Origin: a bacterium | Lineage (GTDB): Bacteria; UBP15; UBA6099; JBFMBQ01 | NCBI GenBank assembly: GCA_040752295.1 | Contig: JBFMFE010000322.1 | Location: forward strand, 1,682 to 65,681 | Reading direction: 5' to 3' | Length of the DNA stretch: 64,000 bases | In this document: piece after piece, positions 3,499 through 49,446 of the stretch | How the letters are laid out: every line of letters begins with the position of its first letter | Numbering within the stretch: position 1 is the stretch's first letter | Translations under genes and position numbers: made by a program | The notes under the pieces: generated by a model | What the model was told of the DNA's origin: nothing | What the model saw: only the letters and a program-made list of their open reading frames with translations | Databases searched by the model: none

Positions 3499-3501
3499 CC
3501 T

Positions 3502-9653: not shown

Positions 9654-10853
9654 TCAGAGAACGTCGGAGAGCTTCACGCGGTAGAGTCTTCCTTCCGTGA
9701 CGATCCAGAGATTGCCGCTCCCCGCCGTAAAATCCCTGGATTTCATCAGGACGTCCGCCGCCTTTCCGCCTAATCTCTTTATTTCCCCTTTTTCGGGGTC
9801 GAGTACGATTGCCGTCGCGGACGACGCGGCTAAGAAATTCGTTCCCGCCGCAGCCGCCGCGTGAAAATCGCCCCGCAGACTGATGTCCTGTTTCGATGAA
9901 TAAGACTTCCACTTCCCGGTTCGTGTGTCGAGGACGCACACCCCCCCCTTCGTCTTCACCGTTTTCACGGGTATGAGTCCCGATTCGATGTCTTTCTGGA
10001 GCGGCGCCCTCGCTTTCTCGTCCGTCGCGTAGGTGAACCACCTGTTCTCCTTTTCCACGTAAACCTTGATCTCGTCCCTCGAAAGCTCCATTCTGTCGCC
10101 GAGGTATCCGGTCGTACCGCCGCTCGTCGCGATAAGGACGTGGGCGCCGGTCTTTTCGATCGCGTTGATTCTCACCCCGCACCCGTGGTCTCTGGGCAGG
10201 AAATACCGGTACTTCCCGCTCGCGGCGTCTATCTTCAGCAAGCCCGCGCTCACGCCGAGCCAGATGTTCCCGGCGTCCGCGAGCATCGCCGTTACGGGTT
10301 TTGTGTGGTTGTATCCGGTCCGTTTCAGCGTCGTGCGGTCGAACACGGAGACGCCCTCGCGGTCCGGTCCGCCTTCGCCGGTAACGTAAAGCCTTTTTCC
10401 CTCGACGGCGATCTTGTCGCCGCCTATGATGTTGAGGTCGTAGAGTTCTTTCCACTCCCCGGTGCGGGGCGTGAACCGGCACGTTCCTCCCTCGTCTCCG
10501 GTGCGGAACCATACGCCCTCCCCGTCCTCGGCAAGGGAGAGTACGTCGCCCGCGGGGCATCCCTCGAGGCTTGTGTCAGCCTCGAACGTGCGCCACCCGC
10601 CCGCGCCCCGCTCGAGCACGCTGACCGCGTCTCGGTGCCCCGCCCACACCGCTCCGGCGCCGGCGTATATCGCCGTCACCGGCTTCGGTATCCCCGCCGC
10701 GGGCAGTCTGACGTGTTCCACAACCGGTTCGGCTGCCCCGGGAGGCGCAGCCGCGGGAGAACCGGGTGAAGGCAGGGAGGCGGCGGCGACGGCGGCGAAC
10801 AGGAGTATGAGAGGGAGTCTTGCTCTCATCGGACCCATCGGGGATGCGCTCAT
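9654..10853 (-). CDS. secreted beta-propeller-like repeat protein (hypothetical)
   Basis: Signal peptide MRARLPLILLFAAVAAASLP. Repeated ~40-aa Gly/Trp-rich units (GVWFRTGDEGG, GNIWLGVSAG, GNLWIVTEG) resemble propeller blades. Possible starts at 10853, 10838 or 10829. Confidence 0.5.
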   Translation of the reverse strand: MSASPMGPMRARLPLILLFAAVAAASLPSPGSPAAAPPGAAEPVVEHVRLPAAGIPKPVTAIYAGAGAVWAGHRDAVSVLERGAGGWRTFEADTSLEGCPAGDVLSLAEDGEGVWFRTGDEGGTCRFTPRTGEWKELYDLNIIGGDKIAVEGKRLYVTGEGGPDREGVSVFDRTTLKRTGYNHTKPVTAMLADAGNIWLGVSAGLLKIDAASGKYRYFLPRDHGCGVRINAIEKTGAHVLIATSGGTTGYLGDRMELSRDEIKVYVEKENRWFTYATDEKARAPLQKDIESGLIPVKTVKTKGGVCVLDTRTGKWKSYSSKQDISLRGDFHAAAAAGTNFLAASSATAIVLDPEKGEIKRLGGKAADVLMKSRDFTAGSGNLWIVTEGRLYRVKLSDVL

Positions 10854-18701: not shown

Positions 18702-19709
18702 CTATTTTATTCCCGCGTTCGCGGTTCGTGCGTCCAGGCGGGATGAAATGTCCATGATGTATTCCGTCTGTTCGGGGACGCCGGATATGACAAGACGGCG
18801 GCGTTCTTCGCCGGTTTTTCTTGCGAAGAACGCCGCGAACCGGGCTTTCGCCGGCTGCGTTTTACCCTCGACGACCCTGTCGAGGGCGTAGTGGATGTGT
18901 GGGAACATCGAGATGCCCGAGTTCCCGACAAGCCCGATGGTCTGCCCGCGCTCCACGCGGTCGCCCTCGGTGATCTTGAGAGAGCCTTGCATGAGGTGAT
19001 AGATCTCGCTGACCTCGCCGTTTCCGTGGTCAATCCGGACGAAGTTCGCCTTTCCCATTTTCGTCGTCATGGGTCCGTGGTCCGGCATGTCGTTTTCGGC
19101 TCGCACGATGTCGCCGGGCGCGGGCGCGACGACCTCCCGTCCCCAGGCGAAATAGCTCTCGTTCCGGTTGCTGTTTCCCTTCGACATGGCGCCGTCAATC
19201 ATCACCACTAAGTCCCAGGCGAATTCGTTTCCCGTGCCCTCCTGGTGTGAGATCACGCCCCGGTTGCCCTGCACGACGAACATTTCGCCCCTGAAGGGAA
19301 AGGTCAGGATCGTTTTCTGACCGTCGCCAGCGTCGTTTTCGAGGATGGGGAGGAAGTCGGTTGAGGACAGTCTGCCGGACAGCGCGCATTCGAAGACGGT
19401 TCCGGCGTCGCCGGCGTCGAGCGCGTCGAGGAAATCTTTTATCCGGGGGTACCTGTTGGCGGAGAGCCAATCGGCAATCTTCGCCAGCGCGGACTCTTCT
19501 TTTTCCGTGAGCGCGCCGTCGGCGGCGGCGATGTTTTCGAGCGCGTCGGCGAACCCGCCCGAGGTCGAGCGGATCGGCTCGAAGAGCTTCAGCTTGCAGG
19601 GGCATATCGCCTGAAGATCAGCCGGCGAAGCGAGCAGGGAGCAGGCGCACAGCGCGAGGGCGAGCCTGAGGTGGAAGCCGTGTCCTCGTGGCGGGGCGCT
19701 TTTTTTCAT
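18702..19709 (-). CDS. M23-family peptidase (secreted or lipoprotein)
   Basis: N-terminal signal or lipobox-like segment (LALALCACSLLA). The C-terminal block HxGxD...GLVGNSGISMFPHIHYAL is the LytM/M23 zinc-peptidase signature. Confidence 0.75.
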   Translation of the reverse strand: MKKSAPPRGHGFHLRLALALCACSLLASPADLQAICPCKLKLFEPIRSTSGGFADALENIAAADGALTEKEESALAKIADWLSANRYPRIKDFLDALDAGDAGTVFECALSGRLSSTDFLPILENDAGDGQKTILTFPFRGEMFVVQGNRGVISHQEGTGNEFAWDLVVMIDGAMSKGNSNRNESYFAWGREVVAPAPGDIVRAENDMPDHGPMTTKMGKANFVRIDHGNGEVSEIYHLMQGSLKITEGDRVERGQTIGLVGNSGISMFPHIHYALDRVVEGKTQPAKARFAAFFARKTGEERRRLVISGVPEQTEYIMDISSRLDARTANAGIK

Positions 19710-20767
19710 TTATGTTTCTGGTCGCAGAGATCGAGGCAGATGTTTTTGTCTTCTTCTTTTTTCTCTTTATCGCAGTTCTTTCTGCATTTCTTGAGTTCGC
19801 CTCTTTTTTTTGCCAGCGCTTTAAGCTCCAGCATATAGGCTTCGTGTTCCCTTATCCATCCTCTTTTGAGCGATCTCTGGTAGGAGTCCTCGAGGGATTT
19901 CATAAGCTCGGGCGAGGCCTCGGCGAAACCCACCCCGGCTGTTTTCATGATGTTGAAGACCACTCCCATTTCGGGGTCGTTGTGCGCGTTGAACAGGATC
20001 GCCTTGAACTTGTTCATCACGTCTTGATCGAGGTTTTCTCTGTACACTGGGAACACGCCGTTCGTCATCGCCTCCGTGCAGACGAGCGGAACGACGTTGG
20101 GGTTGCTGCTCTTTATAACCTGGTAGAGCGTTTCCGACATGAGGAAGGTTTCGAAGCTTCCCATCACGACGCCCGTCGGGAGGGCGAAGAAGCTGTCCAC
20201 GGGAACGAGCAGCTTGAAGAACTGCGTAGGAGGCTCGTCTATTCCGTTTTCGTACATCAAAGCCCGCATGGTGGTCCAGTCGAGCTGCGTGCCGCCCGCT
20301 ATTCTCTTCCCCCGGAGGTCCTCAAGTTTTTTGATGCTGGTCCCTTTTTTGATGAAAAGACAGTTTTTCTGGGTTATCTTTCCTCCCACCGTGAGGAGGG
20401 CGACGGGTTTGATCGGGACGTTCTGCTGACGCGCCTCGCGGTAATGGTGGTAATCCATCCAGGAGAAATCCCCTCCCTCCTTGAGCCGTTCCACCGTCTT
20501 GTCCATCGCCTCGTCCTGGCTGTCCTTCGGTGAGCCTACCATCTCGTAGTCGAAGGAAAGCCCGGTCTGCTTCTCTATTTTTTTTATCAGTTCCTCCCCT
20601 ATCTGCTTTATCGTATCGAGCGAGAAGCCCACGCCCTCGATATTGAATGTGGGGGCTATGAAGAGAAGCTTTGTTTTTTCCTGGAGTAATGCCGGCGCGG
20701 AAAGTCCCAGCGCTGATGCTGTCATGAGAACCAGGAAGGATTTTATTCGCGTCATCATTTCCGACAC
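19706..20767 (-). CDS. periplasmic substrate-binding domain protein (PhnD/SsuA-like) with Cys/Lys-rich C-terminal tail
   Basis: Signal peptide MTRIKSFLVLMTASALGLSAPALL. The body resembles ABC-type phosphonate/sulfonate binding proteins. The tail is KKCRKNCDKEKKEEDKNICLDLCDQKHK, with two CxxxC pairs. Confidence 0.5.
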   Translation of the reverse strand: MSEMMTRIKSFLVLMTASALGLSAPALLQEKTKLLFIAPTFNIEGVGFSLDTIKQIGEELIKKIEKQTGLSFDYEMVGSPKDSQDEAMDKTVERLKEGGDFSWMDYHHYREARQQNVPIKPVALLTVGGKITQKNCLFIKKGTSIKKLEDLRGKRIAGGTQLDWTTMRALMYENGIDEPPTQFFKLLVPVDSFFALPTGVVMGSFETFLMSETLYQVIKSSNPNVVPLVCTEAMTNGVFPVYRENLDQDVMNKFKAILFNAHNDPEMGVVFNIMKTAGVGFAEASPELMKSLEDSYQRSLKRGWIREHEAYMLELKALAKKRGELKKCRKNCDKEKKEEDKNICLDLCDQKHK

Positions 20768-20921
20768 CCCCGGGGCGTTTGCGAGACCCGTCTGTTCAAA
20801 TGAGCAGGCTTTCCCTTTATTCGATCTGAAATGTCCTGATCCATGATAGCGACCCGTTTTTGCGGTGTCAAACGGCGGGGCGCGCCCCCCCCGCGGCGCG
20901 GTTGTTTTTCGCCGCGGCGGT

Positions 20922-20951
20922 TTCTCAAACCCTTCCCGCGCGTTGTATAAT
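20922..20951 (+). promoter_or_regulatory. sigma-70-like promoter (TTCTCA-N18-TATAAT) upstream of the FadL-like OMP gene
   Basis: TATAAT at 20946-20951 and TTCTCA at 20922-20927. An 80-nt leader with an AAAGGAGA Shine-Dalgarno precedes the ATG at 21031. Confidence 0.3.
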
Positions 20952-21030
20952 ACTCACTACCTTTTATGAGAAAAACCGCGCCTGTATTACACCCGTCGTT
21001 CCCGCGGACTGTTTGGGAAAGGAGACCGTC

Positions 21031-22101
21031 ATGAAGAAACTGTTTGCGCCGGTTTTACTGACGCTGGCGTTTTCCAGCGGCGTTTTCGCCGCGAAGGTAG
21101 CCATGGAAGAGTTGAACGGCTCGGACCTCGGCATGGGCGTCGGCGCGAGGGCGATAGGGATGGGGGGCGCGTTCGCCGCGCTTGCGGACGACGCCTCCGC
21201 TATGTACTGGAACCCCGCGGGGCTGACGCGGCTCGACACGAACGAGACGATGCTGATGGCGGACCAGGACCCCATTCGTTACACCTTCAAGGCGATGGTG
21301 TTCCGTCCGAAGGAGTGGAGGAGAAAGAAGTCCAGTCCCGCTTTCGGCGCGGCGCGCACCAACAGGCTCAAGTACAGGGGTGAGGGCGACTGGAGAAACG
21401 ACACCTTCGCGCAGCATCTCATAGACCTGAGCATGATTGACGTGGACCTCGACGAGCCGAAGTGGGCGGGGACCGGCGGCATTGACTCGCGGACGTGGGA
21501 CTCCAGATTTTCTTTCGCCTGGACCTTCCCGTCAATGGAGCGTCTTTCGATGGGCGTGAGCTACGTTGATTTCAAGTGCGTGACCACCTTTTACGCCGGA
21601 TGGCTCCAGAACGCGTGCCAGGTCGTGGCATACGACGCGTGGGACCTCGGGCTGCTGTACCGCGCCGGCGGGAAGATGCAGTATGGATTGACGCACCGTA
21701 ACCTCTTCGAACAGACCAAGCCGAAGTATCTCACGGTCGCCGCCGCTCTTTTCAAGAACGAGGACACCACTTTCACGCTCGACGTCGAGCGCATTTTCGG
21801 CAACTACAGCAGTAACCTGCGGAAGGTCCGGTTTCTGATGGTTCGGGCGGGGATGGAGCGCCGTCTCGACCAGCGCTGGGCGCTGCGCGCCGGGCTTATC
21901 TTTCCCCTTCAGGCGCATACGTCCACGCTCGGCGACCTCAAGGCGAACCTCCCCAGTCCCGGGTTCGGCGGCGCGTTCGGCGTCGGATACACGTACAAAA
22001 CCACCTCGCTGGACCTCGCCGTGTTCGGCGACCCCGGAAGGAGCTACGTCGAGCATGACGCAAGGATAAATTACTCGCTCACCCTGACGCAGAGGATGTG
22101 A
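21031..22101 (+). CDS. FadL/OmpP1/TodX-family outer-membrane beta-barrel transport protein (PorV-like)
   Basis: Signal peptide MKKLFAPVLLTLAFSSGVFA. The N-terminal motif LNGSDLGMGVGARAIGMGGAFAALADDASAMYWNPAGL matches the FadL hatch motif (LNE.S.SGLGRA..GE.A.ADDAS....NPA). Beta-strand-rich alternating pattern throughout. The true start is the ATG at 21031, not the ORF start at 20860. Confidence 0.65.
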   Translation: MKKLFAPVLLTLAFSSGVFAAKVAMEELNGSDLGMGVGARAIGMGGAFAALADDASAMYWNPAGLTRLDTNETMLMADQDPIRYTFKAMVFRPKEWRRKKSSPAFGAARTNRLKYRGEGDWRNDTFAQHLIDLSMIDVDLDEPKWAGTGGIDSRTWDSRFSFAWTFPSMERLSMGVSYVDFKCVTTFYAGWLQNACQVVAYDAWDLGLLYRAGGKMQYGLTHRNLFEQTKPKYLTVAAALFKNEDTTFTLDVERIFGNYSSNLRKVRFLMVRAGMERRLDQRWALRAGLIFPLQAHTSTLGDLKANLPSPGFGGAFGVGYTYKTTSLDLAVFGDPGRSYVEHDARINYSLTLTQRM

Positions 22102-22152
22102 ATTCCGCGCCCTTCTGCCCGGCGCGCCGGTCGCGGCGCCGGTTCGGCTTCC

Positions 22153-23529
22153 ATGTCCGGCTCATCATCAGCCCCCGAAGATCGTCTCCCCTTATGGCGC
22201 GGGCTTATGTACGCGTCGGGCAACCTGTCGAGCCAGTTCCTCCAGTGGGCTTTCGTGATGTACCTCGCTTTTTACTACTCTCCCGGCGGCGGCACGGGAT
22301 TCAGGGAACTTCTCCCCATAGGACTCACGACGGCGGTCCTCGCCGTCGGGCGCTTCCTCGACGGATTCCTCGAGCCGGTCGTGGGTTACTGGAGCGACCG
22401 CACCCGCACACGGTGGGGACGCCGCATCCCTTTCATAATGTTCGGGGGATTTCCGATGTGCCTTTTCTTCCTTCTCATGTGGTATCCGCCTTTCCCCGAC
22501 AGCCTCCCGCTCACCACCCTGCATCTCGTCGTCACCAACACCGCGTTCTGGTTCTGCATAACGCTCGTGTTCTGCCCGTACCTCGCCCTCCTTCCCGAGA
22601 TAGCGAGGTCAAGCCAGGACAGGGTCTTCATATCGCAGCTCATGCAGGTTTTTCTCATGCTGGGCACCGGCTTGGTGATGATACTGCCCTCCGTTTTCAA
22701 GAGGAACGATTATGGACACACGGGGATGTACGCCGTCGTCGCGCTTCTCGCGCTTGTCGCCATCTACATGCCCGTGGTCGGTGTGCCGGAAAAAAGGTTC
22801 ACGCGCGCCAGGGGGGACGAGGACGACTATACCATTCTCCAGGCGCTGAAATGGACCTTCACCAACAGGGCTTTCCTCGTTTACGTGATCAGTTCCCTCT
22901 TCATGCTCCTCGGGTTTCAGACGATACTGAACACGTTCATGTACGTCATCACCGTTTTTCTCGGGAAGCCCCAGTCGTTCACCGCCGTCGTGTTCGGCAT
23001 CATTGCCGTATCGGTTTTCGTGTCTTTCTTTTTCATCCACAGGTTCGCATCAAGATATTCCAAGAAACTGATGCTTTCGGTTTCCTACCTCGCGCTCTGC
23101 GCCGCGCTGCCGATGCTGTATCTGCTCGACGCCGAGACCGTTTTCGGAATGCCCACCATCACGGTCGCCTGCGTGTTTTTCTTCATCATGGGCGTGCCCG
23201 TGGCGGGCATCATATGCCTGGGGCTGCCCATCATCGCCGACATCGCCGATTACGATGAGAAGGTGACGGGGAAGCGCAGGGAAGCCATTTTCTTCGGCGC
23301 CCAGGGGATTCTCCAGAAATACACGATTTCGCTCACGTATCTGACGCAGGGTTTTCTGTTCGGGAGGTTCGGATATTCAGTTGACAACCCCTTCGGGATC
23401 AGGTTGATCGGACCCGTCACGGCGGTGTTCGTGCTTTTAGGGCTGGTAATTTTTCTGTGCTATCCCCTCGACGAAAAGACGCTCACACTCAAGCCGACGA
23501 TTCCGTTCCGCTGGAAAAAGACCCGGTGA
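22153..23529 (+). CDS. MFS transporter, glycoside-pentoside-hexuronide (GPH):cation symporter family
   Basis: GYWSDRTRTRWGRRIPF is the GPH/MelB signature loop. The 458-aa protein has about 12 predicted TM segments. Confidence 0.75.
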   Translation: MSGSSSAPEDRLPLWRGLMYASGNLSSQFLQWAFVMYLAFYYSPGGGTGFRELLPIGLTTAVLAVGRFLDGFLEPVVGYWSDRTRTRWGRRIPFIMFGGFPMCLFFLLMWYPPFPDSLPLTTLHLVVTNTAFWFCITLVFCPYLALLPEIARSSQDRVFISQLMQVFLMLGTGLVMILPSVFKRNDYGHTGMYAVVALLALVAIYMPVVGVPEKRFTRARGDEDDYTILQALKWTFTNRAFLVYVISSLFMLLGFQTILNTFMYVITVFLGKPQSFTAVVFGIIAVSVFVSFFFIHRFASRYSKKLMLSVSYLALCAALPMLYLLDAETVFGMPTITVACVFFFIMGVPVAGIICLGLPIIADIADYDEKVTGKRREAIFFGAQGILQKYTISLTYLTQGFLFGRFGYSVDNPFGIRLIGPVTAVFVLLGLVIFLCYPLDEKTLTLKPTIPFRWKKTR

Positions 23530-23579
23530 CGCGCGCTTGCCGCCCGCACGTACGGTACGGTTTATGTTCCCTGCGGGCG

Positions 23580-23599
23580 CCGGGGGCATGTGCCCCCGG
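23580..23599 (+). terminator. perfect 20-nt palindrome (CCGGGGGCA TG TGCCCCCGG), candidate terminator or operator after the MFS gene
   Basis: 9-bp GC-rich stem, 50 nt downstream of the MFS stop. It is followed by TACTGGATTTCGAAATTT, which is only moderately T-rich. Confidence 0.35.
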
Positions 23600-23635
23600 T
23601 ACTGGATTTCGAAATTTCCCTCGAGTTTAAAAAAT

Positions 23636-23663
23636 TTGCTTTTTCAGGAAAAAGGTTTAGAAT
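23636..23663 (+). promoter_or_regulatory. sigma-70-like promoter (TTGCTT-N16-TAGAAT) for the giant S8 protease gene
   Basis: AT-rich island TTTAAAAAATTTGCTTTTTCAGGAAAAAGGTTTAGAATTTG. A GGAGGG Shine-Dalgarno lies 12 nt before the GTG start at 23691. Confidence 0.4.
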
Positions 23664-23690
23664 TTGATACCGGAGGGAATATAACATTCA

Positions 23691-26600
23691 GTGATCTGTA
23701 GAAGATCAGTTTTTGCGTCTCTTATAGTTATTTTCTGCGCGACCGGCGTTTTCGCGGGCGAATTCACGCGTACGTTTTCACAGGGTTGGCAGCTTGTAAC
23801 CTTTCCTTTTACGTTCGAGAACGCGGGCGACGCCTGCAAGTTGCTCGGCGAACGTGATTTCGCCCTTTTCGGGGTCAGGGACGGCAGGTACATCCCCTGC
23901 ACGGAGGTCGCCGGGATAAACCCGGGGCAGGGTTACTGGGTCCATCTGCCGGCGGGCACGTCAGCGCTCTCCGGAACCCCGGTAAGCGCCGCCGGCGGTT
24001 TCACCATACCGGTATCACCCGGGTGGAACCTTATAGGGAACCCATTCCTTTCCGAAATTGACTTGGTACAGTCGGCGAGCGTCGGCGGCGTGAGCCTGGA
24101 GAACGCGGACGGCGTTTCAGCCGTGGTTTTCGGGTACGACGCCGCGGAAAAGAGATACGCGGCGACCACGGTGCTGAAGCCGTGGGAGGGATATTTTCTC
24201 TATTCCCGCGTCGCCGCGGTCCTCGAACTGTCGCCCCCGACCGATTCCGGCACGCCCGAACCCGCGGCGCCCCAGGTTGTGACGATCCGGATAGAAAGCG
24301 CCCCCGATGGAACCGGGCGGGAAGTCGGTCCGCTTGACCTTCTGCCCGGTGAGGAAGTTACCTTCTGGGCTGCCGGATACGATAAAGCCGGCGGATACCT
24401 GGGTGGCGTCGAAGCGCAATGGGCGGCGGAAGGGACGCTCGGAGCGCTGTCGGCGGCGAGCGGGGTTTCGGTGAGTTACCGCGCGGATTCCGGCGGGAGG
24501 GCGGGGACCGTCGCGGCGGCATACGGTCAGGCGGCGGACTCGACGGGAAGAGTCGTGGTGGTGGATGATTCACCTCTTTCCGCTTATCCCTTCGGCGAGG
24601 AAGACCCCGTGGCGCGCGATGACGCCGGCGTTCCGTACATTTCGGATCAGCTTCTGGTAGCCGTCGCGCCCGGCACTGCCGACGCGCGCGTGGAGGAACT
24701 GGCGGGCGGAATCGGCGCGAAGGTCGTGGGCAGGAACTCCGCTGCTGGCGTGTACCAGTTTAAACTCGAATCCACGACGCCGCAGGACGCCGCCGCCGCC
24801 CTCGACGGGCTTCCCGAAATCAGAACGGCATCGCCCAATTACCTTTTGGCTCCCAGCGCCGTTCCCGCCGACCCCGTCTTCGACGCCGCGGCGCCGTATA
24901 TCGAGAGATGGGGTTTTGAAAAAGTAGGAATGACATCGGTGTGGAAGGAGTACGCCCCCGTCGGCGACCCCGTCATCGCTGTTCTCGACACCGGCGTGGA
25001 CGCTTCTCACCCTGAGCTTGCCGGGAGGGTATCCGGCGGCGTCAATCTTATCTCGCCCGCTGCCGGCACGGGGGACGTTTACGGGCACGGCACGCCGATA
25101 GCGGGCGTGGCGGCAGCGAAGGGCGACAACGCGGCGGGCATCGCCGGGATGTGCTGGAACTGCCGGATAATGCCCGTCAAGGTGTGCACCGACGCCGGCA
25201 CGTGCCCGCTGTTCACCGTGCTCGACGGCATAACGTACGCGGTGAACAACGGGGCGAGGATTGTCAACATCAGCGTGGGCGCCGATTTCCCGTCGGGTTC
25301 TCCCGTGGAGCAAATAGTCCGAGCGATCACGCGCGACGCCTATTACCGCGGCGCTCTTGTCGTTGCCGCGGCGGGCAACGGCGGACACGACTCCGGCACT
25401 TTCCTGCCGGGCGCCGACAGGTATGTTATGTCCGCGGGGGCGTCGGACGAGGACGACCAGCGCGCCTCATTTTCGAACTACGGGACGAGAGTGGACGTCG
25501 CCGCGCCTGGAAAGCAGGTTTACACCACCGGCGCGGGCGGCGGCTATGTTTACCGGAGCGGGACATCGTTCTCCGCCGCGTTCGTATCGGGTCTCGCCGG
25601 GATAGTGCTTTCAATCCACCCGGACATGAGCGTTAACACTCTCAAAAGTTATATTTCATCCAACGTTGACGTGATATCCACGGACCGCCCCATCGGCGGA
25701 AGGATCAACGCCGGGAAGGTTCTTCAGTCGCTGATGAGTTCAAACCTGCCGCCGGTCATTTCGAGCCTTGTCGCGGAAAGGCTGCTGGTGAGGACGGGGG
25801 AGACCGTTCAACTGACGCTTGCGGCGGGCGATCCCGACGGCGACCCGCTGAACGTGGAGTGGAATCCTACCGCCGGGACCGTCGCGCCGGCAGGCGCATG
25901 GTCGCCGGCGTGGCAGGCGCCCGCCTCCCGTGGGGAGATTGTCATCGCCGTCACCGTCAGGGACACGCAGGGTGCGGTGGACGCGGCGGAGATACGCATC
26001 GCGGTGCTGGACGGCGCCGCCGCTGAGGTGAGGATCGAGCCGGATTCGCCGACGGTGGGGCAGGGCGGCACGGTCGCGCTTTCCGCATACGCATACGACG
26101 CGCCCGCACTGGGCGGTACGGCGTCTCCCGTGAGAGTCTATCCCGTATGGAGCGTGACCGGGGGAGTGGGGACTGTTTCGGCGGACGGCGTTTTTGCGGC
26201 GACGAACGCGGGGACGGGCATGGTGACGGCGGCGATTGACGGTCTGACCGGGACGACTTCGGTAACGGTCACGCCGGGTACTTCGCCGTCGCTCACGCCG
26301 GCGGCGACGAACGTTCCCTGCGGCAACGACTGGCCCATGATGGGCTGCAACCTCTCGCGCAACGACCAGTCGTCGCTCGAACTGCCCGGACCGATGACGG
26401 TACGCCAGGTATTCTCAACGGTCGCCAACATGATGGCTGGTCCGTTGATGGTCAACGGCAGGGCTTACGCCGTGGACCTTGGCGGGAACCTGTACTGCAT
26501 CGATCAGAATACCTGGACACAGATATGGACGGTTCCTCTGGCGGGTGGAATTCCCTACAGGTCGCCTGTGGCGGCGAACGGCGCGGTGTACGTACTCAAC

Positions 26601-29600
26601 AACGGAGGAATTCTATACAAACGCAACCTCGACGGCACACCCGTCTGGCAGTACAGCCCCGCTTCGGGGTACGGCGTGGGTTACTCGACGCTGGCAGCCA
26701 CCTCCGATTCAGTGTATTACGTATCGTACAACTTCAGCGGACTCGACGGAGAGGTCATAGCCCTGAACGACGCGGATGGGTCGGAGAAGTGGCCCCCCCT
26801 CAACATCTTGTACCCGTCGCAGTACGTAAGCATCGCGGTGGAGACCGTCGGCGCAACGGAGATGCTTTTTGTCGGGAAGAGGAGACACGACATTGACAAG
26901 CTCAGATACATGGCGGTGAACGCCTCGACCGGCGCGATCGTGTGGGAGCAGGAAGTTGTGATCATCGGGGGATCGTCTTTCAGGGGCTCGCCGGTTGTGG
27001 AGGGTAACGCCCTTTACGCCCTCGAGGAATCCGGGAACATCGTGAAATTCGATGCGACAACGGGGAGTGTAATTTGGGTTCATGATCTCGGGCAGTGGGT
27101 TTACGGTGACATGGCATACAGGGATTCGGTTCTTTACGTCGGCACCATAGACGGGTACGTGCACGCGATTCTTGACAGCGGCTTGACGTCGTCGGAGCTG
27201 TGGGTTTCGGAAAAGTTTGGAGGCGTTGCCGGCGCCGAGTTTTTCGGTGCGCCGGCGATAACCGGCAGTTACGTCATCGCGGGCGGAGTGGGAGCGGGCG
27301 CGCCCGGAACGTTCAAAATCCTCAACCGTGCGGACGGGAGCACGTACCAGACAATCCTGTTCAGCTGCAACTATTCCGACTCGCCCGCGGTCGGTTTTTA
27401 TCCCACAAGCGGCGAAACCGAAATCTACATGACGTGCGACGGTCCCAAGTACGTGATCGCGTTTGAAAGAAACTACCCTCCGAACATAATTTCCCTCAGC
27501 TACACCCCGCCGGGGCAGGTCGTCCCCGGCGGCAGTACGGACGTGTTCGTTCAGGTTGAAGACCCGAACCAATCGGGAGGCACTCCATGCTCCGACATTT
27601 TCGCGGTGGAGATTGACCTCGGGCTGGTGGGGGGGGCGACGGCGACGCTTCTTGACGACGGGTTCCCGCCCGACGCCGCGGCGGACGACTGCCTGTTCAC
27701 CGCGACGATAACCGTCGAGCCGGGCACGTCCGCGGGGCTTAAGCCACTGCTCGTCACCGCGTACGATTACGGAAACTTCACCGATGCCACCGACACTCCG
27801 AACCTGGAGGTGCTCCAATCCGCGCCGACCGTCGTGAGCGTCACGTTCACGCCGCCGGACGTCGTGAACAACGGCGCGGACACCACGCAGGTCTCCGTCG
27901 TTGTCGAAGACCTGAACGACTCGATAAACGCCGTCATGGTTGACCTCGACGAGATAAACGGCGCCTCCGGCACTGAGTGGCTCGACATCACCGCCGGCTG
28001 CGGCGCGTTCTCGACCACCACCCACCAGGTCACGTGCACCTTCGCCGGAATAACCGCCGACCCCAGCACGACGCTCGGTTTCAAGACCATCCCCGGCAGA
28101 GCGATTGACGATTTGTACGACGTCTCCGGCTCACCCACTCCCAACAACTTGGAGGTGATCGACCTCGGCTCGTTCAGGGTGACCGCAAGCCCGACGTCCC
28201 TTCCTGTGAACACCGACACGACCATAACCATCGAAGCCTACGATGACAACGGCAGCCTGATAGACACGTACGTCAACGCCGTCGCGATAGACCTCTCCCA
28301 GACCGGTGCCGCAACGGGGACGACGCTGACCTGGAGCGGGGCGGGAGTGACCAACAACGGGGACGGCACGGGCTTCATCGCCACGGGAACGTTCGTCGCG
28401 GGCGTTGCGACCGTCAAGTTGAAAAACATACGCGCCAACGAAACGATAACCGCCGCCGCCACCAACCCCTCGGACGGGTCAACGGGCAACACGTCCCTGA
28501 CCGGCACCAATGTAACGTGGACGCCGGGTCCGCTCGCTAAATTCGTGGTCACGGCCAATCCCACGACCCCGGTCATCGGAACGGCAGCCACCGTCTCCAT
28601 CAAGGCGTATGACGCGTACGACAACTTCATAGGCACGTACGAAAACGACGACGGCCCGATAGACCTCCAGGCGGAACTCGCGGGGTTTCCATGCCCGAGC
28701 GCGACGATGTGGTGGACGGCTGTTGCGCCGGCGACCATCACCGACCTCGGAGGCGGCTGCGCCACGCTCGAGATGAACAGCTTCGGCGGCGACGGGGAGG
28801 CGCTCGTCAATATCTATAACACCACCGCCGAGGGTCCCGCGAAGATAACCGCCGCGCACAGCCTCTCCGGAGCGACCGGCAACACCAATGAAACCGGAAC
28901 CGACGTCACCTGGGGCACCGGCGTGCTCGATCACTTCGACGTTTACGCGAACCCGTACGCGTCCGTGCCCGCCGGCGCGACGACCACGGTGTACGTCGAG
29001 GCGCACGACGCCTTCCACAACGTCATCACGACCTTCGACAAAGACATGAACATAACGCAGACCGGCGGCACCGCGTCGGCGATAACTTACTCCGGCGCGA
29101 ACATAGTGGACCTGGGGGGCGGCAACGGAAAAATCCTCGGCGCGGCTTTCGTGAGCGGCCTCGCCGAGTTCTACCCGGCGGACACAAAGGCGACCGAAAC
29201 GGTGCGCTTCACGGCGACCGAGCCGACGTCGGGCGCGTCGGGGAACACCGGCGCAGGCGAAAACCCGCCAACCAACACGGACGTCACCTGGGTGCCGGGC
29301 GCGCTCGCGAAATACATCATACGCGATTCTCCCAACGGCGGGGGAAGCGAGCAGGGCAACAAGATCATGGCGGCGGGCGCCTCTCTCACGCTTTATGCCG
29401 CCGGCTACGACCAGTACGACAACCTGCGAGGCGACGACCCCGCGTGCTGGAGCGTCACCGGAACGCTCGACCCGATAGCGACGGGTCCTTTCAGCGTCAA
29501 CACCTTCATCCCGGCACACGAGGGACCGGAAGGCACCATACACGTGGACGCGCCGGCGGCGCCGGGCGACTGCTCGGCGTTCGACCCCGGCGTCGTCACC

Positions 29601-30788
29601 GATGACACCGGCACCATCAAGGTCGGCAGCGACAAGCCCCTGCCCCCGACGCTCACCGCGGTGGGCGGAACGCTCGAAATAAGACTATCCTGGTCTGGTC
29701 CCTTCCAGTACGAGGACGGAACAAGCGTCACCCCGGGGGAACTCGCCACGTTCACGTTCAACGTGTACCGCTCCCTGAGCGCGTCCGGCGTCTGCGATCC
29801 GGGGAACCTTTACGTCACGGGAGTGGGACCCGCGACGAGCACGTACACCGACACCGCCGTCACGTCCTGGGTCACCTACTACTACGTCGTCACCGCAGTC
29901 AACCCCAATGCCCTGCCCACCCCGGAGGAGAGCGAGTGTTCCAACGTGGCGAGCGCCGTCGCGATGGAGCCTGCCTGGACGCTCCTGAGAAAATGCGGGG
30001 AAAACCCGACCGAATACCTGCCGCCGTGGCACACCGACAGGTTCAACCGACCGATGGACGCCGTCGTTGATCCCGCCGGTTTCATTTACGTGGCGGATAT
30101 GGACAACCACCGTATTAAGAAGATAGACATGAACTGCGTTTACATAACCCACTGGGGAACCCTTGGTCCCGAAGACGGGAATTTCCGCCAGCCCATGGGC
30201 ATCGCCTATTCCGGCGGCGAACTCTACGTGGTGGACAACTACAACCGTGTGCAGGTGTTCGACACTAACGGCGTATTCCTGCGCAAATGGGACGTTTCCG
30301 CGCCCGTAGCCATCGAGGCCGCCGCGGGGGCGCTGTTCGTGACGACGAGCAACTGGAAGATAAAAAAGTACGACAGCGTCGGGACGCTGCTGGACACATT
30401 CACCCTCAAAGACCCGAAGGGCATTGCCGCCGACGCCTCCGGGAACCTCTACGTTGCGACATGGGACGACAGCACCATAAGGAAGCTGGACTCGTCCGGC
30501 GCCGCCGTCGCGACGTACGGCGCCTTCGGCTCGGCGTACGGCCAAACAAGGTATCCTTTCGACGTGGACCTCGACTCCGCGGGAAACATGATCATAGCGG
30601 ACGGGACCTATAACAACAGAGTGCAGATATGGAAGCCGGACGGCTCTATTGACAACGTCATCCACCCGAAGTCGAACGATTACGCGACGCTGAACGGTCC
30701 GATGGGGGTGGCGGTCGCCTCCACCGGCGAACTGGTAGTGATGGACACGGACAACAGCCGAGTGCTCATATTTCAGCCGCCGCCGTGA
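23691..30788 (+). CDS. giant secreted multidomain subtilisin-like (S8) serine protease / adhesin-like protein (2365 aa)
   Basis: Signal peptide MICRRSVFASLIVIFCATGVFA, then an I9-like propeptide, then an S8 catalytic domain with the triad in AVLDTGVDASHPEL (Asp), YGHGTPIAGVAAA (His) and GTSFSAAFVSGLAGIV (Ser). Downstream are PKD/Ig-like and Big_2-like domains and a PQQ-type beta-propeller (residues ~880-1250, YCIDQNTWTQIW..., YALEESGNIVKFDATTGSVIW). About seven invasin/Big-like Ig repeats follow (VTASPTSLPVNTDTTITIEAYDDNG...), then an FN3 domain (LEIRLSWSGP...TYYYVVTAVN) and C-terminal NHL repeats (RPMDAVVDPAGFIYVADMDNHRIKKID...). Confidence 0.85.
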   Translation: MICRRSVFASLIVIFCATGVFAGEFTRTFSQGWQLVTFPFTFENAGDACKLLGERDFALFGVRDGRYIPCTEVAGINPGQGYWVHLPAGTSALSGTPVSAAGGFTIPVSPGWNLIGNPFLSEIDLVQSASVGGVSLENADGVSAVVFGYDAAEKRYAATTVLKPWEGYFLYSRVAAVLELSPPTDSGTPEPAAPQVVTIRIESAPDGTGREVGPLDLLPGEEVTFWAAGYDKAGGYLGGVEAQWAAEGTLGALSAASGVSVSYRADSGGRAGTVAAAYGQAADSTGRVVVVDDSPLSAYPFGEEDPVARDDAGVPYISDQLLVAVAPGTADARVEELAGGIGAKVVGRNSAAGVYQFKLESTTPQDAAAALDGLPEIRTASPNYLLAPSAVPADPVFDAAAPYIERWGFEKVGMTSVWKEYAPVGDPVIAVLDTGVDASHPELAGRVSGGVNLISPAAGTGDVYGHGTPIAGVAAAKGDNAAGIAGMCWNCRIMPVKVCTDAGTCPLFTVLDGITYAVNNGARIVNISVGADFPSGSPVEQIVRAITRDAYYRGALVVAAAGNGGHDSGTFLPGADRYVMSAGASDEDDQRASFSNYGTRVDVAAPGKQVYTTGAGGGYVYRSGTSFSAAFVSGLAGIVLSIHPDMSVNTLKSYISSNVDVISTDRPIGGRINAGKVLQSLMSSNLPPVISSLVAERLLVRTGETVQLTLAAGDPDGDPLNVEWNPTAGTVAPAGAWSPAWQAPASRGEIVIAVTVRDTQGAVDAAEIRIAVLDGAAAEVRIEPDSPTVGQGGTVALSAYAYDAPALGGTASPVRVYPVWSVTGGVGTVSADGVFAATNAGTGMVTAAIDGLTGTTSVTVTPGTSPSLTPAATNVPCGNDWPMMGCNLSRNDQSSLELPGPMTVRQVFSTVANMMAGPLMVNGRAYAVDLGGNLYCIDQNTWTQIWTVPLAGGIPYRSPVAANGAVYVLNNGGILYKRNLDGTPVWQYSPASGYGVGYSTLAATSDSVYYVSYNFSGLDGEVIALNDADGSEKWPPLNILYPSQYVSIAVETVGATEMLFVGKRRHDIDKLRYMAVNASTGAIVWEQEVVIIGGSSFRGSPVVEGNALYALEESGNIVKFDATTGSVIWVHDLGQWVYGDMAYRDSVLYVGTIDGYVHAILDSGLTSSELWVSEKFGGVAGAEFFGAPAITGSYVIAGGVGAGAPGTFKILNRADGSTYQTILFSCNYSDSPAVGFYPTSGETEIYMTCDGPKYVIAFERNYPPNIISLSYTPPGQVVPGGSTDVFVQVEDPNQSGGTPCSDIFAVEIDLGLVGGATATLLDDGFPPDAAADDCLFTATITVEPGTSAGLKPLLVTAYDYGNFTDATDTPNLEVLQSAPTVVSVTFTPPDVVNNGADTTQVSVVVEDLNDSINAVMVDLDEINGASGTEWLDITAGCGAFSTTTHQVTCTFAGITADPSTTLGFKTIPGRAIDDLYDVSGSPTPNNLEVIDLGSFRVTASPTSLPVNTDTTITIEAYDDNGSLIDTYVNAVAIDLSQTGAATGTTLTWSGAGVTNNGDGTGFIATGTFVAGVATVKLKNIRANETITAAATNPSDGSTGNTSLTGTNVTWTPGPLAKFVVTANPTTPVIGTAATVSIKAYDAYDNFIGTYENDDGPIDLQAELAGFPCPSATMWWTAVAPATITDLGGGCATLEMNSFGGDGEALVNIYNTTAEGPAKITAAHSLSGATGNTNETGTDVTWGTGVLDHFDVYANPYASVPAGATTTVYVEAHDAFHNVITTFDKDMNITQTGGTASAITYSGANIVDLGGGNGKILGAAFVSGLAEFYPADTKATETVRFTATEPTSGASGNTGAGENPPTNTDVTWVPGALAKYIIRDSPNGGGSEQGNKIMAAGASLTLYAAGYDQYDNLRGDDPACWSVTGTLDPIATGPFSVNTFIPAHEGPEGTIHVDAPAAPGDCSAFDPGVVTDDTGTIKVGSDKPLPPTLTAVGGTLEIRLSWSGPFQYEDGTSVTPGELATFTFNVYRSLSASGVCDPGNLYVTGVGPATSTYTDTAVTSWVTYYYVVTAVNPNALPTPEESECSNVASAVAMEPAWTLLRKCGENPTEYLPPWHTDRFNRPMDAVVDPAGFIYVADMDNHRIKKIDMNCVYITHWGTLGPEDGNFRQPMGIAYSGGELYVVDNYNRVQVFDTNGVFLRKWDVSAPVAIEAAAGALFVTTSNWKIKKYDSVGTLLDTFTLKDPKGIAADASGNLYVATWDDSTIRKLDSSGAAVATYGAFGSAYGQTRYPFDVDLDSAGNMIIADGTYNNRVQIWKPDGSIDNVIHPKSNDYATLNGPMGVAVASTGELVVMDTDNSRVLIFQPPP

Positions 30789-30910
30789 GGTTTCGCGGGG
30801 ACCCCCGCCCCTCGAGCGATTCCCGGGGACGTTCACGGCGACACTGTCGCCGCGTTCCCGAACCCTCCCGCTCCGAAAAAGTTGCAGGTAGTGGTTTTTT
30901 CTCCGGTCGC

Positions 30911-30937
30911 TCAAGTTTTCGCGCCTTATACCGATTA
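30911..30937 (+). promoter_or_regulatory. sigma-28 (FliA)-type promoter upstream of the flagellin gene
   Basis: TCAAGTTT-N11-ACCGATTA compared with the consensus TAAAGTTT-N11-GCCGATAA. The -10 ends 77 nt before the flagellin ATG. Confidence 0.5.
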
Positions 30938-30963
30938 AATAATAGAAGGCGGGATAGACGCCG

Positions 30964-31013: not shown

Positions 31014-32018
31014 ATGATCTCCATTAATACAAATACCACGGCGCAGTACGTATTTAATCAGACCCGGCTCAACAACCTTGTTTTCGGCGAGAAGACCGAG
31101 CGGCTGACGTCGGGCGCCAGGGTGAACAGGGGGGTGGACGACCCCTCCGGGCTTGCCATAAGCGTGGGGATGACGGCACAGATTCGCGGACTGCTCACCG
31201 ACATAGCCAACGTGCAGGACGGGATTTACATGCTCAACTTTCTCGACGGAGTTTTCGACGTTACCCAGGACATACTGATGCGGATGAAGGACATCGCGCT
31301 GCGGCTCGCGAACGAGGCGGTCGTGAGCACGGTCGTTGATCCCACGGAGGTTGTCCCCTCGCAGGCGCGGATGCTGTACGACGAATACTACGGACTTGCG
31401 CAATTAGTGGTGAAGTTCTTCAACACACAGGTGGGAGGACAGCGGTTCCTCCCCTATATCCAGTTTAACGGGAAGCCCATACTGATGAACGATTTTTACA
31501 TAGAGCCTGGCACGGGCAACCTCATACCGCATTATCATCTGCCTTCCGGGGAAGACCTTCAGGTCGGACCCGATAACGATTCGAGCCACAGGATAGAGGT
31601 CAAGACCATGTGGATGGAACAGGTTTTCGACGATTTCGAGGCGTTCTTCCAGCCCCCCCTTCCGAATTTCACCATGAGCTGGTTCAGCGGGTTCGGACGC
31701 ACGCAGGCGTCGAACATAGCCGATAAGATTGACAAGATCAGCGAGGCGCGCGTCGAGGTGGGCACGATAATAAACCGGCTGAGAAAAACGCTCAACGACA
31801 TCTCCGCGCAGTACATAAACGTCTCCGCCGGGAGGTCCCGGATACTGGACGCCGACATGGCGGTGGAGATAACCGAGCTTGCAAAGAATCAGATCAGGAC
31901 GCAGACCACCGTCGCGATGGCAAGCCAGGCGAACGCCGTGCCGCTGATAGCCATGCCACTTCTGGAAGCCATCTACGCGGGTCTCGCGCCGACGCCCGAA
32001 ACGGAAACCTCGCAGTAG
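31014..32018 (+). CDS. flagellin-family protein (divergent)
   Basis: The N-terminus MISINTNTTAQYVFNQTRLNN....ERLTSGARVNRGVDDPSGLAIS parallels flagellin MAQVINTN...LSSGLRINSAKDDAAGQAIA. The C-terminus RSRILDADMAVEITELAKNQIRTQTTVAMASQANAVPLIAMPLL parallels [50 protein letters not shown] Shine-Dalgarno and a sigma-28 promoter upstream. Confidence 0.8.
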   Translation: MISINTNTTAQYVFNQTRLNNLVFGEKTERLTSGARVNRGVDDPSGLAISVGMTAQIRGLLTDIANVQDGIYMLNFLDGVFDVTQDILMRMKDIALRLANEAVVSTVVDPTEVVPSQARMLYDEYYGLAQLVVKFFNTQVGGQRFLPYIQFNGKPILMNDFYIEPGTGNLIPHYHLPSGEDLQVGPDNDSSHRIEVKTMWMEQVFDDFEAFFQPPLPNFTMSWFSGFGRTQASNIADKIDKISEARVEVGTIINRLRKTLNDISAQYINVSAGRSRILDADMAVEITELAKNQIRTQTTVAMASQANAVPLIAMPLLEAIYAGLAPTPETETSQ

Positions 32019-42689: not shown

Positions 42690-42902
42690 GTTTTCCCCTC
42701 CTTCCGGCGTGTTTTTTCGAACGCCGGGGCGTCCGGTGTCAAGTGTATCATCCGCATTGTTATTCTGTAAACATCGGGAGGGGATCGAGAACTGCAAATA
42801 TCCGTTGCCGATGGTTTTTTGTCCGCGGATCGTGTATCATTCAATGAGCGTAAAATCAATAAAGACCGACGAAAAAGGAGCGGCGAACGAGGGAGAGGAA
42901 TC

Positions 42903-44231: not shown

Positions 44232-44279
44232 AGTCTTCCGGAGACGTGAAAATAACTCAGCCGGGCGGCGGTTTCTGAA

Positions 44280-45215: not shown

Positions 45216-45296
45216 AACTCGGAGCTGAACCTGCCGCGTCGTGAACCCGCGGACCGGGGTTTTCGGACGCGCCGAAAAAAAACCGGAGCTGCGCCG

Positions 45297-48900: not shown

Positions 48901-48943
48901 GTTTCCGGTGAGTGCTCCGTGCAGTCTCCCGGCGAGCGCCTCC

Positions 48944-49402: not shown

Positions 49403-49446
49403 GCCGCCCGGGTGGTTCCGCCCTCTTTCCGGGGTCTGACGTAGCG

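Follow-up and report, generated by a model that had tools for sequence, protein, structure and literature searches.

Domain architecture and gene neighbourhood of a predicted giant S8 protease carrying two β-propellers

Gene organization of the locus

Three open reading frames were found in the window, a 64,000-nucleotide stretch of contig JBFMFE010000322.1 from a bacterium of the GTDB lineage UBP15, and correspond to a predicted outer-membrane β-barrel protein (OMP; 20860..22101 in the program-made call), an MFS transporter (22153..23529), and a 2365-aa protease (23691..30788). As originally predicted, the three genes were co-directional; they and all features described below are located on the + strand. 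Their GC3 values (0.78-0.83) were usual for real genes of the window. Horizontal acquisition was ruled out on composition, as GC3 of all three genes matches the window. No tRNA or Rfam elements were found in the window.

The most likely translation start of the OMP gene is ATG 21031 (protein MKKLF...), which gives a 356-aa protein with a signal peptide (21031..22101), and not TTG 20860, the start given in the original prediction. The upstream start was considered unlikely because the 32 full-length homologues (43-65% identity; alignment A1) were all 346-391 aa in length, and because both a ribosome-binding site upstream of the ATG (GGAAAGGAG) and a promoter-like site, TTCTCA-18-TATAAT at 20922-20951, fit a start at 21031.

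In Pfam and NCBIfam scans, the OMP did not exceed any curated family cut-off (Toluene_X, 24.2 bits against 29.7; PorV_fam, 45.4 against 90; PorV2, 47.7 against 325), and the OMP-family profile matched no PDB sequence. Profile-profile comparison by hhalign nevertheless aligned A1 with the PorV/UPF0164-type alignment A3 over 275 columns (query columns 10-341; probability 99.84%, E 2.9e-30). The members of A3 matched UPF0164 (15/15), PorV (13/15), and Toluene_X (11/15). The N-terminal motif G.GARA.GMGGAF.A.ADDASA.YWNPAG was common to the OMP and to PorV/PorQ and UPF0164/FadL-like barrels. Judged by profile-profile homology, the OMP is thus a divergent representative of the PorV/PorQ-UPF0164-FadL superfamily, and the earlier assignment of the upstream gene as FadL/PorV-like was borne out over the full length, although below every curated cut-off. 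Unlike these relatives, it contained a family-specific insertion at approximately residues 95-125. The UPF0164 members TP0548, TP0856, TP0858, TP0859, and TP0865 have been listed as predicted treponemal OMPs (PMC10600179).

The second gene (22153..23529) encodes a 458-aa, GPH-related inner-membrane transporter that matched Pfam MFS_2 end to end (residues 19-441; E 3.5e-53, 181 bits, cut-off 27). Its best PDB matches were the lysolipid symporters MFSD2A (E 3.6e-17), followed by MelB (E 2.4e-05), both being MFS_2/GPH-type symporters. Of the earlier assignment to the GPH family, full-length MFS_2 membership was confirmed; the transporter was nearer to MFSD2A than to MelB, and its score against the GPH model TIGR00792 was under the cut-off (145 bits against 231) and far under the equivalog cut-offs. 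The gap between OMP and MFS was short (51 bp) and GC-rich (78% GC), so that co-transcription of the two genes is likely, and it contained no promoter-like site.

Between MFS and protease, a 9-bp GC hairpin (CCGGGGGCA/TGCCCCCGG) was followed by an AT-rich stretch (23578..23690), which included the 80 nt with the highest AT content in the entire window (at 23624, GC 0.30). This region is probably a separate promoter region for the protease gene, a role that is inferred, as a consensus sigma-70 scan returned no site in 23578..23690 and the fold was no better than that of shuffled sequences (z -1.0). No canonical terminator (hairpin and T-run) was found between MFS and protease, and read-through into the protease is therefore possible, the genes being co-directional and tightly spaced. 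An AT-rich island of its own, which had been predicted for each gene, was thus evident for the protease and weakly so for the OMP, and was missing for MFS.

Domain architecture of the protease

The protease begins with a predicted signal peptide (residues 1-22; 23691..23756) carrying an SPase I-type site between VFA and GEF. All homologues also began with a signal peptide, with a conserved GWQL domain right after it, and tblastn alignments of the homologues started at query residues 3-8. The NCBI gene model (2315 aa) lacks the signal peptide, and its correction is of practical value.

The signal peptide is followed by an N-terminal domain of ~160 aa (N-domain; residues 23-183; 23757..24239) with no family model. 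It showed an internal duplication (GWxL..P...G.GYW and GWNLIGNP...PWxGYF) and was confidently predicted by AF2, and its profile matched no PDB sequence. The N-domain was located at the N-terminus in the protease family and C-terminally or internally in other giant secreted proteins, including two S8 proteins with T9SS C-terminal domains (P0056 and P0034). A relocated T9SS C-terminal domain was ruled out as its identity, since it was distinct from the real one in both proteins. The N-domain is a previously unmodelled family whose fold is without a solved relative, and it is the most novel element of the protein. We raise only tentatively, as a rather improbable proposal, that it may serve as a surface-retention or secretion-targeting module, in which case the zymogen would remain at the envelope until the prodomain is cleaved and the active enzyme set free. 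Being widespread, and without a family model or structural neighbour, it merits a Pfam entry and a structure.

Next was Ig-like domain A (residues 196-291; 24276..24563), a divergent Big_1-like repeat. This domain was widespread: 1281 representative proteins were matched at E <= 0.001, mostly via domain A, and a single protein could contain as many as 25 matched stretches. Relatives of domain A scored on Big_1, and the domain was homologous to residues 1875-1980 of the same protein (A'; E 2e-08).

A fervidolysin-type prodomain (residues 305-383; 24603..24839) was identified by PF22148, Fervidolysin_NPro-like (E 1.9e-07, 31.8 bits, cut-off 21, profile positions 4-81 of 81). The propeptide named in the original prediction was thus recovered above the cut-off, whereas the idea that the protein begins with it had to be abandoned, as ~300 residues precede it (signal peptide, N-domain, and Ig-like domain A).

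The S8A catalytic domain (residues 427-659; 24969..25667) matched PF00082 Peptidase_S8 (E 2.2e-44, 152.4 bits, cut-off 21.8) and, in the PDB, Ak.1 protease (1DBI; E 1.4e-44) and thermitase (1THM; E 1.1e-39); its nearest relatives were thermitase, Ak.1, and subtilisin Carlsberg. D433 (DTGVD), H466 (HGT), and S626 (GTSFS) aligned column for column with 1DBI and 1THM, and the oxyanion residue N563 in AAAGN (N155 in subtilisin numbering) aligned with AAAGN of both. The predicted complete D/H/S triad was therefore confirmed at S8 active-site positions, and the active site, in the D-H-S order of S8A, is intact as read from the sequence.

Two β-sandwich domains follow (25749..26276), one Big_9/PKD-like (residues 687-770) and one Big_2-like (residues 778-862). 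Pfam matches in residues 687-862 were Big_9 (E 8.4e-08), PKD (1.3e-04), Big-like (6e-04), and Big_2 (0.16, weak). A PQQ/BamB-like β-propeller occupies residues 876-1260 (26316..27470), in agreement with the PQQ-type propeller proposed earlier. It was supported by PQQ_2 (E 2.7e-21), by the BamB model TIGR03300 (residues 916-1217), and by PDB matches to BamB and to designed propellers of the PQQ type (E down to 2.7e-30), and 7-8 blades with the pattern G.ly.ld..tG...W could be read from its sequence.

The propeller is followed by two β-sandwich domains without a Pfam model (residues 1261-1492; 27471..28166). These contained a weak choice-of-anchor X motif (residues 1319-1343), and AF2 strands for residues 1339-1489 (pLDDT mostly 70-89, block means 55-89) gave Foldseek matches to Ig/FN3 chains. 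Further downstream lie three tandem Big_1/filamin-like repeats of ~125 aa each (residues 1495-1874; 28173..29312). They aligned in register with repeats that P0185 carries in tandem, and P0185 itself matched Big_1 (E 6.7e-17) and Filamin. As the AF2 model was unusable for the three repeats (pLDDT <50), their assignment as Big_1-like is a purely sequence-based one; the stalk model, built from a 5-sequence alignment, had a mean pLDDT of 54. Self-BLAST of the giant protein at E <= 10 detected no internal repeats, and the stalk repeats were visible only via homologues and P0185. When the stalk alone was used as query, a word-indexed search returned one protein and missed the query itself, which is probably a low-complexity effect.

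Ig-like domain A' (residues 1875-1980) and an FN3 domain (residues 1983-2090) complete the stalk (29313..29960). The AF2 pLDDT of this region was ~56-89 (mostly 65-89), and Foldseek matched FN3/Ig chains. Pfam fn3 gave no match at 1983-2090, and the FN3 label is suggested by the predicted fold and a sequence pattern. Among the Ig-like domains, Pfam detected only Big_9/PKD (687-770) and the weak Big_2/Big-like domain (778-862); the remainder may, on indirect evidence, be divergent Big_1/filamin-like domains. Of the "about seven" Ig domains and one FN3 domain previously described, the FN3 domain was retained, and the count rose to ~9 β-sandwich domains in addition to it.

The protein terminates in a six-blade NHL β-propeller (residues ~2100-2365; 29988..30788; ending ...LIFQPPP). 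The C-terminal NHL propeller of the original prediction was substantiated by profiles (NHL, E 1e-23; SGL, 2.2e-06) and by six-blade NHL structures of TRIM71, Thin, and PknD (E down to 9.5e-35). No sorting signal was found after the propeller, and homologues stop at the same point. Likewise, the protease gave no Pfam or NCBIfam match to a T9SS C-terminal domain, as had been noted before, and neither it nor its homologues extend beyond the last NHL blade; the same scan did detect real T9SS C-terminal domains, namely in P0056, P0034, and P0199.

Homologues and conservation of the gene neighbourhood

Four homologues (P0002-P0005) were colinear with the protease over the full length (31-42% identity, ~80% coverage). 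Stalk length varied among homologues (781-1260 aa), as did repeat number. In P0007 and P0312, an RCC1 propeller came after the same head, and in P0258 (4305 aa), which retained the C-terminal NHL propeller, an HExxH segment and numerous PQQ propellers were added. As stalk length and propeller type vary among members, the head is regarded as a constant functional unit and the tail as the part that sets the target. The protease and its homologues make up a small family of giant mosaic S8 proteases from uncultured bacteria. No exact match was returned for the window proteins, P0001, or P0007. The NCBI name for the protease is "S8 family serine peptidase"; the protein is a new addition to the large multidomain S8 peptidases, an already known class whose mosaic members are common among uncultured diderm bacteria. 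The constant head (N-domain, Ig-like domain, prodomain, and S8 domain), combined with PQQ and NHL, RCC1, or multi-propeller tails, offers a natural system for tail targeting of subtilases.

The three contexts of protease homologues that showed the upstream side (L001, L002, and L004; all 31-42% identical) contained neither OMP nor MFS upstream of the protease. Conversely, neither S8 nor MFS genes were present beside six OMP homologues (36-60% identity; nine loci, L005-L007 and L085-L090). In the closest relative (L085), the genes for M23 (55%), SBP (52%), and OMP (60%) were syntenic with the window, and NamZ and ARPP-1 were located downstream of OMP in place of MFS and S8; downstream of OMP orthologues lay genes for NamZ, a PDDEXK protein, or an epimerase. 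No MFS homologue was detected in 170 loci (2.28 Mb), nor within 10 kb of ~90 PorV/UPF0164-like OMP loci, and none of the 80 loci carrying the N-domain contained a PorV-like OMP. Among ~30 larger likely window genes scanned, no secretion-system, por, or sortase genes were identified.

Proposed function and comparison with known systems

We consider it probable that the three genes are functionally independent and that the product of the large gene is a Sec-exported zymogen of the thermitase/fervidolysin-type S8A subtilases, belonging to the small mosaic family described above. The signal peptide would be cleaved at its SPase I-type site, as indicated by sequence and conservation. By analogy with established subtilase biology, the prodomain would then chaperone and inhibit the catalytic domain, and autocleavage would detach or loosen the N-terminal ~400 residues (N-domain, Ig-like domain, and prodomain). 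The domain carrying D433/H466/S626 would remain covalently linked to ~1700 non-catalytic residues, which may act as a reach-and-bind arm, with the BamB-like propeller near the protease, a flexible stalk of ~7 β-sandwich domains, and the terminal NHL propeller. Such an arm could bring the enzyme to a ligand that is polymeric or located on the cell surface, where it would degrade or process proteins outside the cell; periplasmic residence of the ~250-kDa protease may also be considered. The OMP would be part of a conserved M23-SBP-OMP block, and the MFS_2 gene a lineage-specific insertion, probably co-transcribed with OMP.

The original prediction linked the genes differently, proposing an OMP-associated surface complex in which the protease would depend on the PorV/FadL-like barrel for anchoring or shuttling. 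Such a complex would be comparable to PorV-bound T9SS cargo or dentilisin. The adjacency and common direction of the genes, the true homology of the OMP to the PorV/PorQ-type family, a weak NCBIfam match of the protease to dentilisin PrtP (68 bits), and the occurrence of the N-domain in S8 proteins with T9SS C-terminal domains are in its favour. We nevertheless regard such a complex as very improbable: the protease and its homologues end in an NHL propeller and carry no T9SS C-terminal domain; in P0056 and P0034, the N-domain is separate from the T9SS C-terminal domain; the PorV_fam and PorV2 scores are under their cut-offs and the dentilisin match is far below 300 bits; no por genes were found among the window genes scanned; the protease gene has its own AT-rich upstream region; and synteny was absent in either direction (3/3 protease contexts, the nine loci of six OMP homologues, and the 80 N-domain loci). 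On this genomic evidence, OMP and MFS appear to be chance neighbours of the protease rather than partners, and a neighbouring PorV-like barrel should not be taken as evidence for a secretion or anchoring partnership, although a lineage-specific functional link may exist in this one organism. Leaving the protease aside, OMP and MFS could form a co-transcribed pair that takes up an amphipathic lipid or glycoside, with the OMP as a FadL-type channel in the outer membrane and MFS as an MFSD2A-like symporter in the inner membrane, an arrangement consistent with the GC-rich 51-bp gap devoid of a promoter-like site, the FadL/PorV superfamily membership of the OMP, and the closeness of the transporter to the lysophosphatidylcholine symporter MFSD2A ahead of MelB. 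We judge this pair unlikely, as the adjacency recurred in none of the loci sampled, among them the ~90 PorV/UPF0164-like OMP loci, and OMP orthologues precede other genes (NamZ, PDDEXK protein, or epimerase).

The role of the protease itself may be construed otherwise, namely as mainly an adhesin or a specific processing protease (e.g., for maturation or shedding of a propeller-bound surface partner) and not a bulk degrader. NHL and BamB-like propellers serve as platforms for interactions between proteins. Approximately 70% of the protein consists of non-catalytic binding-type modules (propellers and Ig-like domains), and paralogues have the head in common but exchange the tail, both of which fit such a role, as does the interaction function of the propellers. 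We hold it to be doubtful, and slightly more so than the uptake pair, as the catalytic domain is nearest to the broad-specificity enzymes thermitase, Ak.1, and subtilisin Carlsberg and no conserved candidate partner gene lies nearby; by sequence alone, it is indistinguishable from the Sec-exported S8A zymogen that we prefer.

Among known systems, that zymogen resembles fervidolysin and the thermitase/Ak.1 S8A subtilases, with which it shares the prodomain type, the catalytic domain, and β-sandwich domains after the catalytic domain. The fervidolysin precursor has ~700 residues; the giant protease is ~3 times longer, with ~300 extra residues before the prodomain and, unlike fervidolysin and thermitase, two β-propellers and ~9 further β-sandwich domains after the catalytic domain. 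The presence of the OMP gene indicates a diderm host. Dentilisin PrtP, from the outer-membrane protease complex of Treponema denticola, is likewise an S8 protease from a diderm, and the family of the OMP includes treponemal UPF0164 proteins; in contrast to dentilisin, the NF033595 score was 68 bits against a cut-off of 300, PrcA/PrcB partner genes were absent, and the OMP link was not conserved. PorV/T9SS systems differ in that no T9SS genes or cargo bearing a T9SS C-terminal domain occur near the OMP. In Gram-positive bacteria, the cell-envelope proteinases lactocepin PrtP and streptococcal C5a peptidase ScpA have their S8 head mounted on an extended multidomain stalk (Fn3/Ig-like), which projects the enzyme and directs it to its target. 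The giant protease follows the same design logic, a likeness that is functional only: it lacks the PA-domain insertion and the LPXTG or sortase signal of PrtP and ScpA, and its propellers have no counterpart in them.

Gene organization and start sites

The three ORFs of the original prediction, encoding an outer-membrane barrel protein (OMP), an MFS_2 transporter and a 2365-aa S8 protease, were present on the forward strand at 20860..22101, 22153..23529 and 23691..30788, and Pfam and NCBIfam scans upheld their main family labels. Their GC3 values (0.83, 0.78 and 0.79, respectively) were in line with those of genuine genes elsewhere in the window, whereas shadow ORFs showed values of ~0.5-0.6.

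The start codon of the OMP gene is almost certainly the ATG at 21031 (MKKLFAPVLL..., signal peptide) and not the codon at 20860. GGAAAGGAG precedes this ATG, a TTCTCA-18-TATAAT site was located at 20922-20951, and the 356-aa product from 21031 agrees in length with 32 full-length homologues. The GTG start of the protease gene at 23691 was backed by its homologues, all of which open with a signal peptide and, directly after it, the conserved "GWQL" domain, and tblastn alignments began at query residue 3-8. The NCBI model MEW5947732.1 (2315 aa) begins 50 codons after this GTG (window 23691-23840), and thus the signal peptide common to all homologues is missing from the public model.

Each gene had been proposed to carry its own AT-rich island; this was only partly right, holding for the protease gene but not for the MFS gene. 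No 80-nt stretch in the 64-kb window is richer in AT than one in the MFS-protease spacer (GC 0.30 at 23624), and a perfect GC hairpin of 9 bp lies ahead of it. This hairpin has no T-run, and the spacer region folded no better than shuffled sequences (z -1.0), which leaves termination there putative. The OMP-MFS spacer is 51 bp long with 78% GC, and no promoter-like site was detected in it. Given this GC-rich, promoter-less gap and the AT-rich spacer that follows the MFS gene, OMP and MFS are probably co-transcribed, and the protease gene is probably transcribed from a promoter of its own.

A strong stem-loop (z -2.8) was found after the protease stop codon (30786-30860). Further downstream, a sigma-28 (FliA)-like promoter (TCAA-N15-ACCGATTA, 30910-30950) lies shortly upstream of a flagellin gene (31014-32018). 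On the reverse strand, a 1170-aa shadow ORF (42837-46349; GC3 0.60) overlies three forward-strand genes (42819-44231, 44280-45215 and 45297-46442; GC3 0.78-0.81), two of which had no Pfam match. Five other likely genes (36728-38941 and 61308-63884, forward; 52903-54246, 7211-8170 and 9654-10853, reverse; GC3 0.72-0.86), including those for 737- and 858-aa proteins, also had no Pfam match at E <= 1e-05. In addition, BatA-like and DUF58/VWA genes of an aerotolerance-type operon were found at the left window end (1372-4407, reverse), and TctA/TctC tricarboxylate transporter genes at 47425-50439.

Domain architecture of the protease

Domain borders of the protease were drawn mainly from Pfam scans and AF2 modelling, and the structural reading of the original prediction was borne out with several corrections. 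The protein does not start with a propeptide, as had been described; a signal peptide (residues 1-22), an N-domain without a family model (residues 23-183) and an Ig-like domain A (residues 196-291) precede the Fervidolysin_NPro-like prodomain (residues 305-383). The Peptidase_S8 domain (residues 427-659, E 2.2e-44) follows. When residues 301-700 were searched against PDB, the best matches were Ak.1 protease (1DBI, E 1.4e-44) and thermitase (1THM, E 1.1e-39). The DTGVD, HGT, AAAGN and GTS motifs of the query aligned with the same motifs of both structures, giving D433, H466, N563 (oxyanion hole) and S626 as the active-site residues. The complete triad claimed earlier was therefore in register with known S8 active sites, and from its sequence the protease looks catalytically competent.

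Downstream of the catalytic domain, a Big_9/PKD domain (residues 687-770, E 8.4e-08) and a Big_2-like domain (residues 778-862, weak Big-like/Big_2 match) were the only Ig-like domains recognized by Pfam. These are followed by a PQQ/BamB-like propeller (residues 876-1260; PQQ_2/BamB match), two β-sandwiches (residues 1261-1492), three tandem repeats of ~125 aa each (residues 1495-1874), an Ig-like domain A' (residues 1875-1980), an FN3 domain (residues 1983-2090) and a six-blade NHL propeller (residues ~2100-2365; NHL/SGL match). The presence of two different propellers was confirmed, and both assignments are well supported: the first matched BamB and PQQ-type propellers in PDB, and the C-terminal one matched the NHL domains of TRIM71, Thin and PknD.

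For residues 1300-2080, the best Pfam match was only Invasin_D3 (E 0.13). When residues 1310-2090 were modelled with AF2, only 1339-1489 and 1869-2090 gave confident predictions, with pLDDT <50 for the three central repeats, and Foldseek searches with the confident parts returned generic Ig/FN3 chains. Multiple in-register alignments linked the central repeats to the tandem repeats of the protein P0185, which matches Big_1 (E 6.7e-17) and Filamin. Homology was also detected between domains A' and A (E 2e-08). The repeat to which domain A belongs is very widespread, with matches in 1281 representative proteins and as many as 25 matched stretches in a single protein, and Big_1 matches were obtained for other proteins that carry it. 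The invasin/Big type proposed for these domains was thus supported, indirectly, by P0185 and the Big_1-scoring relatives, but their number had been underestimated (about seven): the total comes to about nine β-sandwich domains plus one FN3 domain.

The protein combines a Sec-type signal peptide, a fervidolysin-type prodomain, an intact S8A catalytic domain that follows this prodomain immediately, and an extended series of binding-type modules towards the C-terminus, with a head that is constant and tails that vary across the family. By analogy with general subtilase biology, the prodomain would aid folding and inhibit the enzyme until autocleavage, and this cleavage would also release the mature enzyme from the N-domain and Ig-like domain A. 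Targeting of the active head to a ligand, either a polymer or a surface, may then fall to the propellers and stalk.

Identity and neighbourhood of the OMP and MFS genes

The OMP gave only short N-terminal matches to Toluene_X/FadL, UPF0164 and PorV/PorQ models, all below curated cut-offs. For a profile comparison, an alignment of the window OMP and its 32 full-length homologues was paired with one of 15 proteins that individually match UPF0164 (15/15), PorV (13/15) and Toluene_X (11/15). Because hhalign linked the two with a probability of 99.84% (E 2.9e-30) over 275 columns, nearly the whole protein, the barrel is, as judged by profile comparison, a member of the FadL/PorV/UPF0164 superfamily, in agreement with the clan named in the original prediction. 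The OMP was rejected as a bona fide PorV (45 bits vs. a cut-off of 90). UPF0164 predicted outer-membrane proteins include TP0548, TP0856, TP0858, TP0859 and TP0865 of Treponema pallidum (PMC10600179). The second protein matched MFS_2 end to end (E 3.5e-53). Among solved structures, the lysolipid (lysophosphatidylcholine) symporter MFSD2A (E 3.6e-17) was nearer than the melibiose permease MelB (E 2.4e-05), which hints at an amphipathic lipid substrate.

An OMP-associated protease complex had been proposed from the adjacency of these genes. No OMP or MFS gene was found upstream of protease homologues at three fetched loci, which instead held a PepX/S15 peptidase gene (L001), an AMP-binding gene in opposite orientation (L002) and small opposite-strand ORFs (L004); L003 was left out of this comparison for its short flank. 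Conversely, no S8 or MFS gene was found near OMP homologues in L005-L007 and L085-L090. The most informative of these, L085 (GCA_043815765.1), carries the closest OMP relative (60% identity). Its positions 1-3321 were syntenic with window 18702-22101, comprising an M23 peptidase (55%), a periplasmic binding protein (52%) and the OMP, after which NamZ and ARPP-1 stand where the window has MFS and S8. In L085, an acyl-CoA dehydrogenase gene fragment sits between the binding protein and OMP genes. Moreover, no MFS homologue was found across 170 fetched loci (2.28 Mb), ~90 of them centred on PorV/UPF0164-like barrels, and none of 80 metagenomic N-domain loci had such a barrel within 10 kb. The scanned window genes encoded ordinary metabolism, flagellin, transporters and aerotolerance functions, with no secretion system or sortase among them. 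With no such pairing at the loci of protease homologues, OMP homologues and the N-domain, the proposed complex was unsupported, and the adjacency is best read as coincidental.

The protease family and known S8 peptidases

The protein database contained an identical protein and a handful of colinear relatives, namely P0002-P0005 (2605-2913 aa, 31-42% identity, ~80% of the query covered) and the partial P0006. The family alignment was colinear from signal peptide to C-terminus, with the stalk varying from 781 to 1260 aa by repeat gain and loss; the constant part is the head (N-domain, Ig, prodomain and S8). P0007 (MEW5945836.1, outside the window) has a 55-72% identical head followed by an RCC1 propeller in place of the PQQ propeller, stalk and NHL propeller. 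Its accession is close to that of the window protein, so the two are probably paralogues from one MAG. P0312 is arranged in the same way. P0258 (4305 aa, outside the window) combines the same head with a zinc-metalloprotease-like HExxH segment (HETGH), about eight PQQ-type propellers and several FN3 domains, and ends with the same C-terminal NHL propeller. As had been noted, a T9SS C-terminal sorting domain (CTD) is absent: no T9SS CTD, LPXTG or PEP-CTERM signal was found in the protease or its full-length relatives, and the last NHL blade (...LIFxPPP) forms the C-terminus of every full-length member.

No Pfam or NCBIfam model matched the N-domain, which contains an internal duplication (GWxL..P...G.GYW and GWNLIGNP...PWxGYF) and was modelled by AF2 from a 21-sequence alignment as an all-β fold (pLDDT 89.3, pTM 0.84). 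It was N-terminal in non-protease proteins (P0288, P0306), duplicated and C-terminal in others (P0298, P0307), and internal in P0056 and P0034, two S8 proteins that carry a T9SS CTD separate from it. Of the first 600 pattern matches from JGI metagenomes, at least 158 were confirmed as relatives. Only the N-domain could count as a new element; the window protease itself joins the giant multidomain S8 peptidases, a known class under which it is already annotated.
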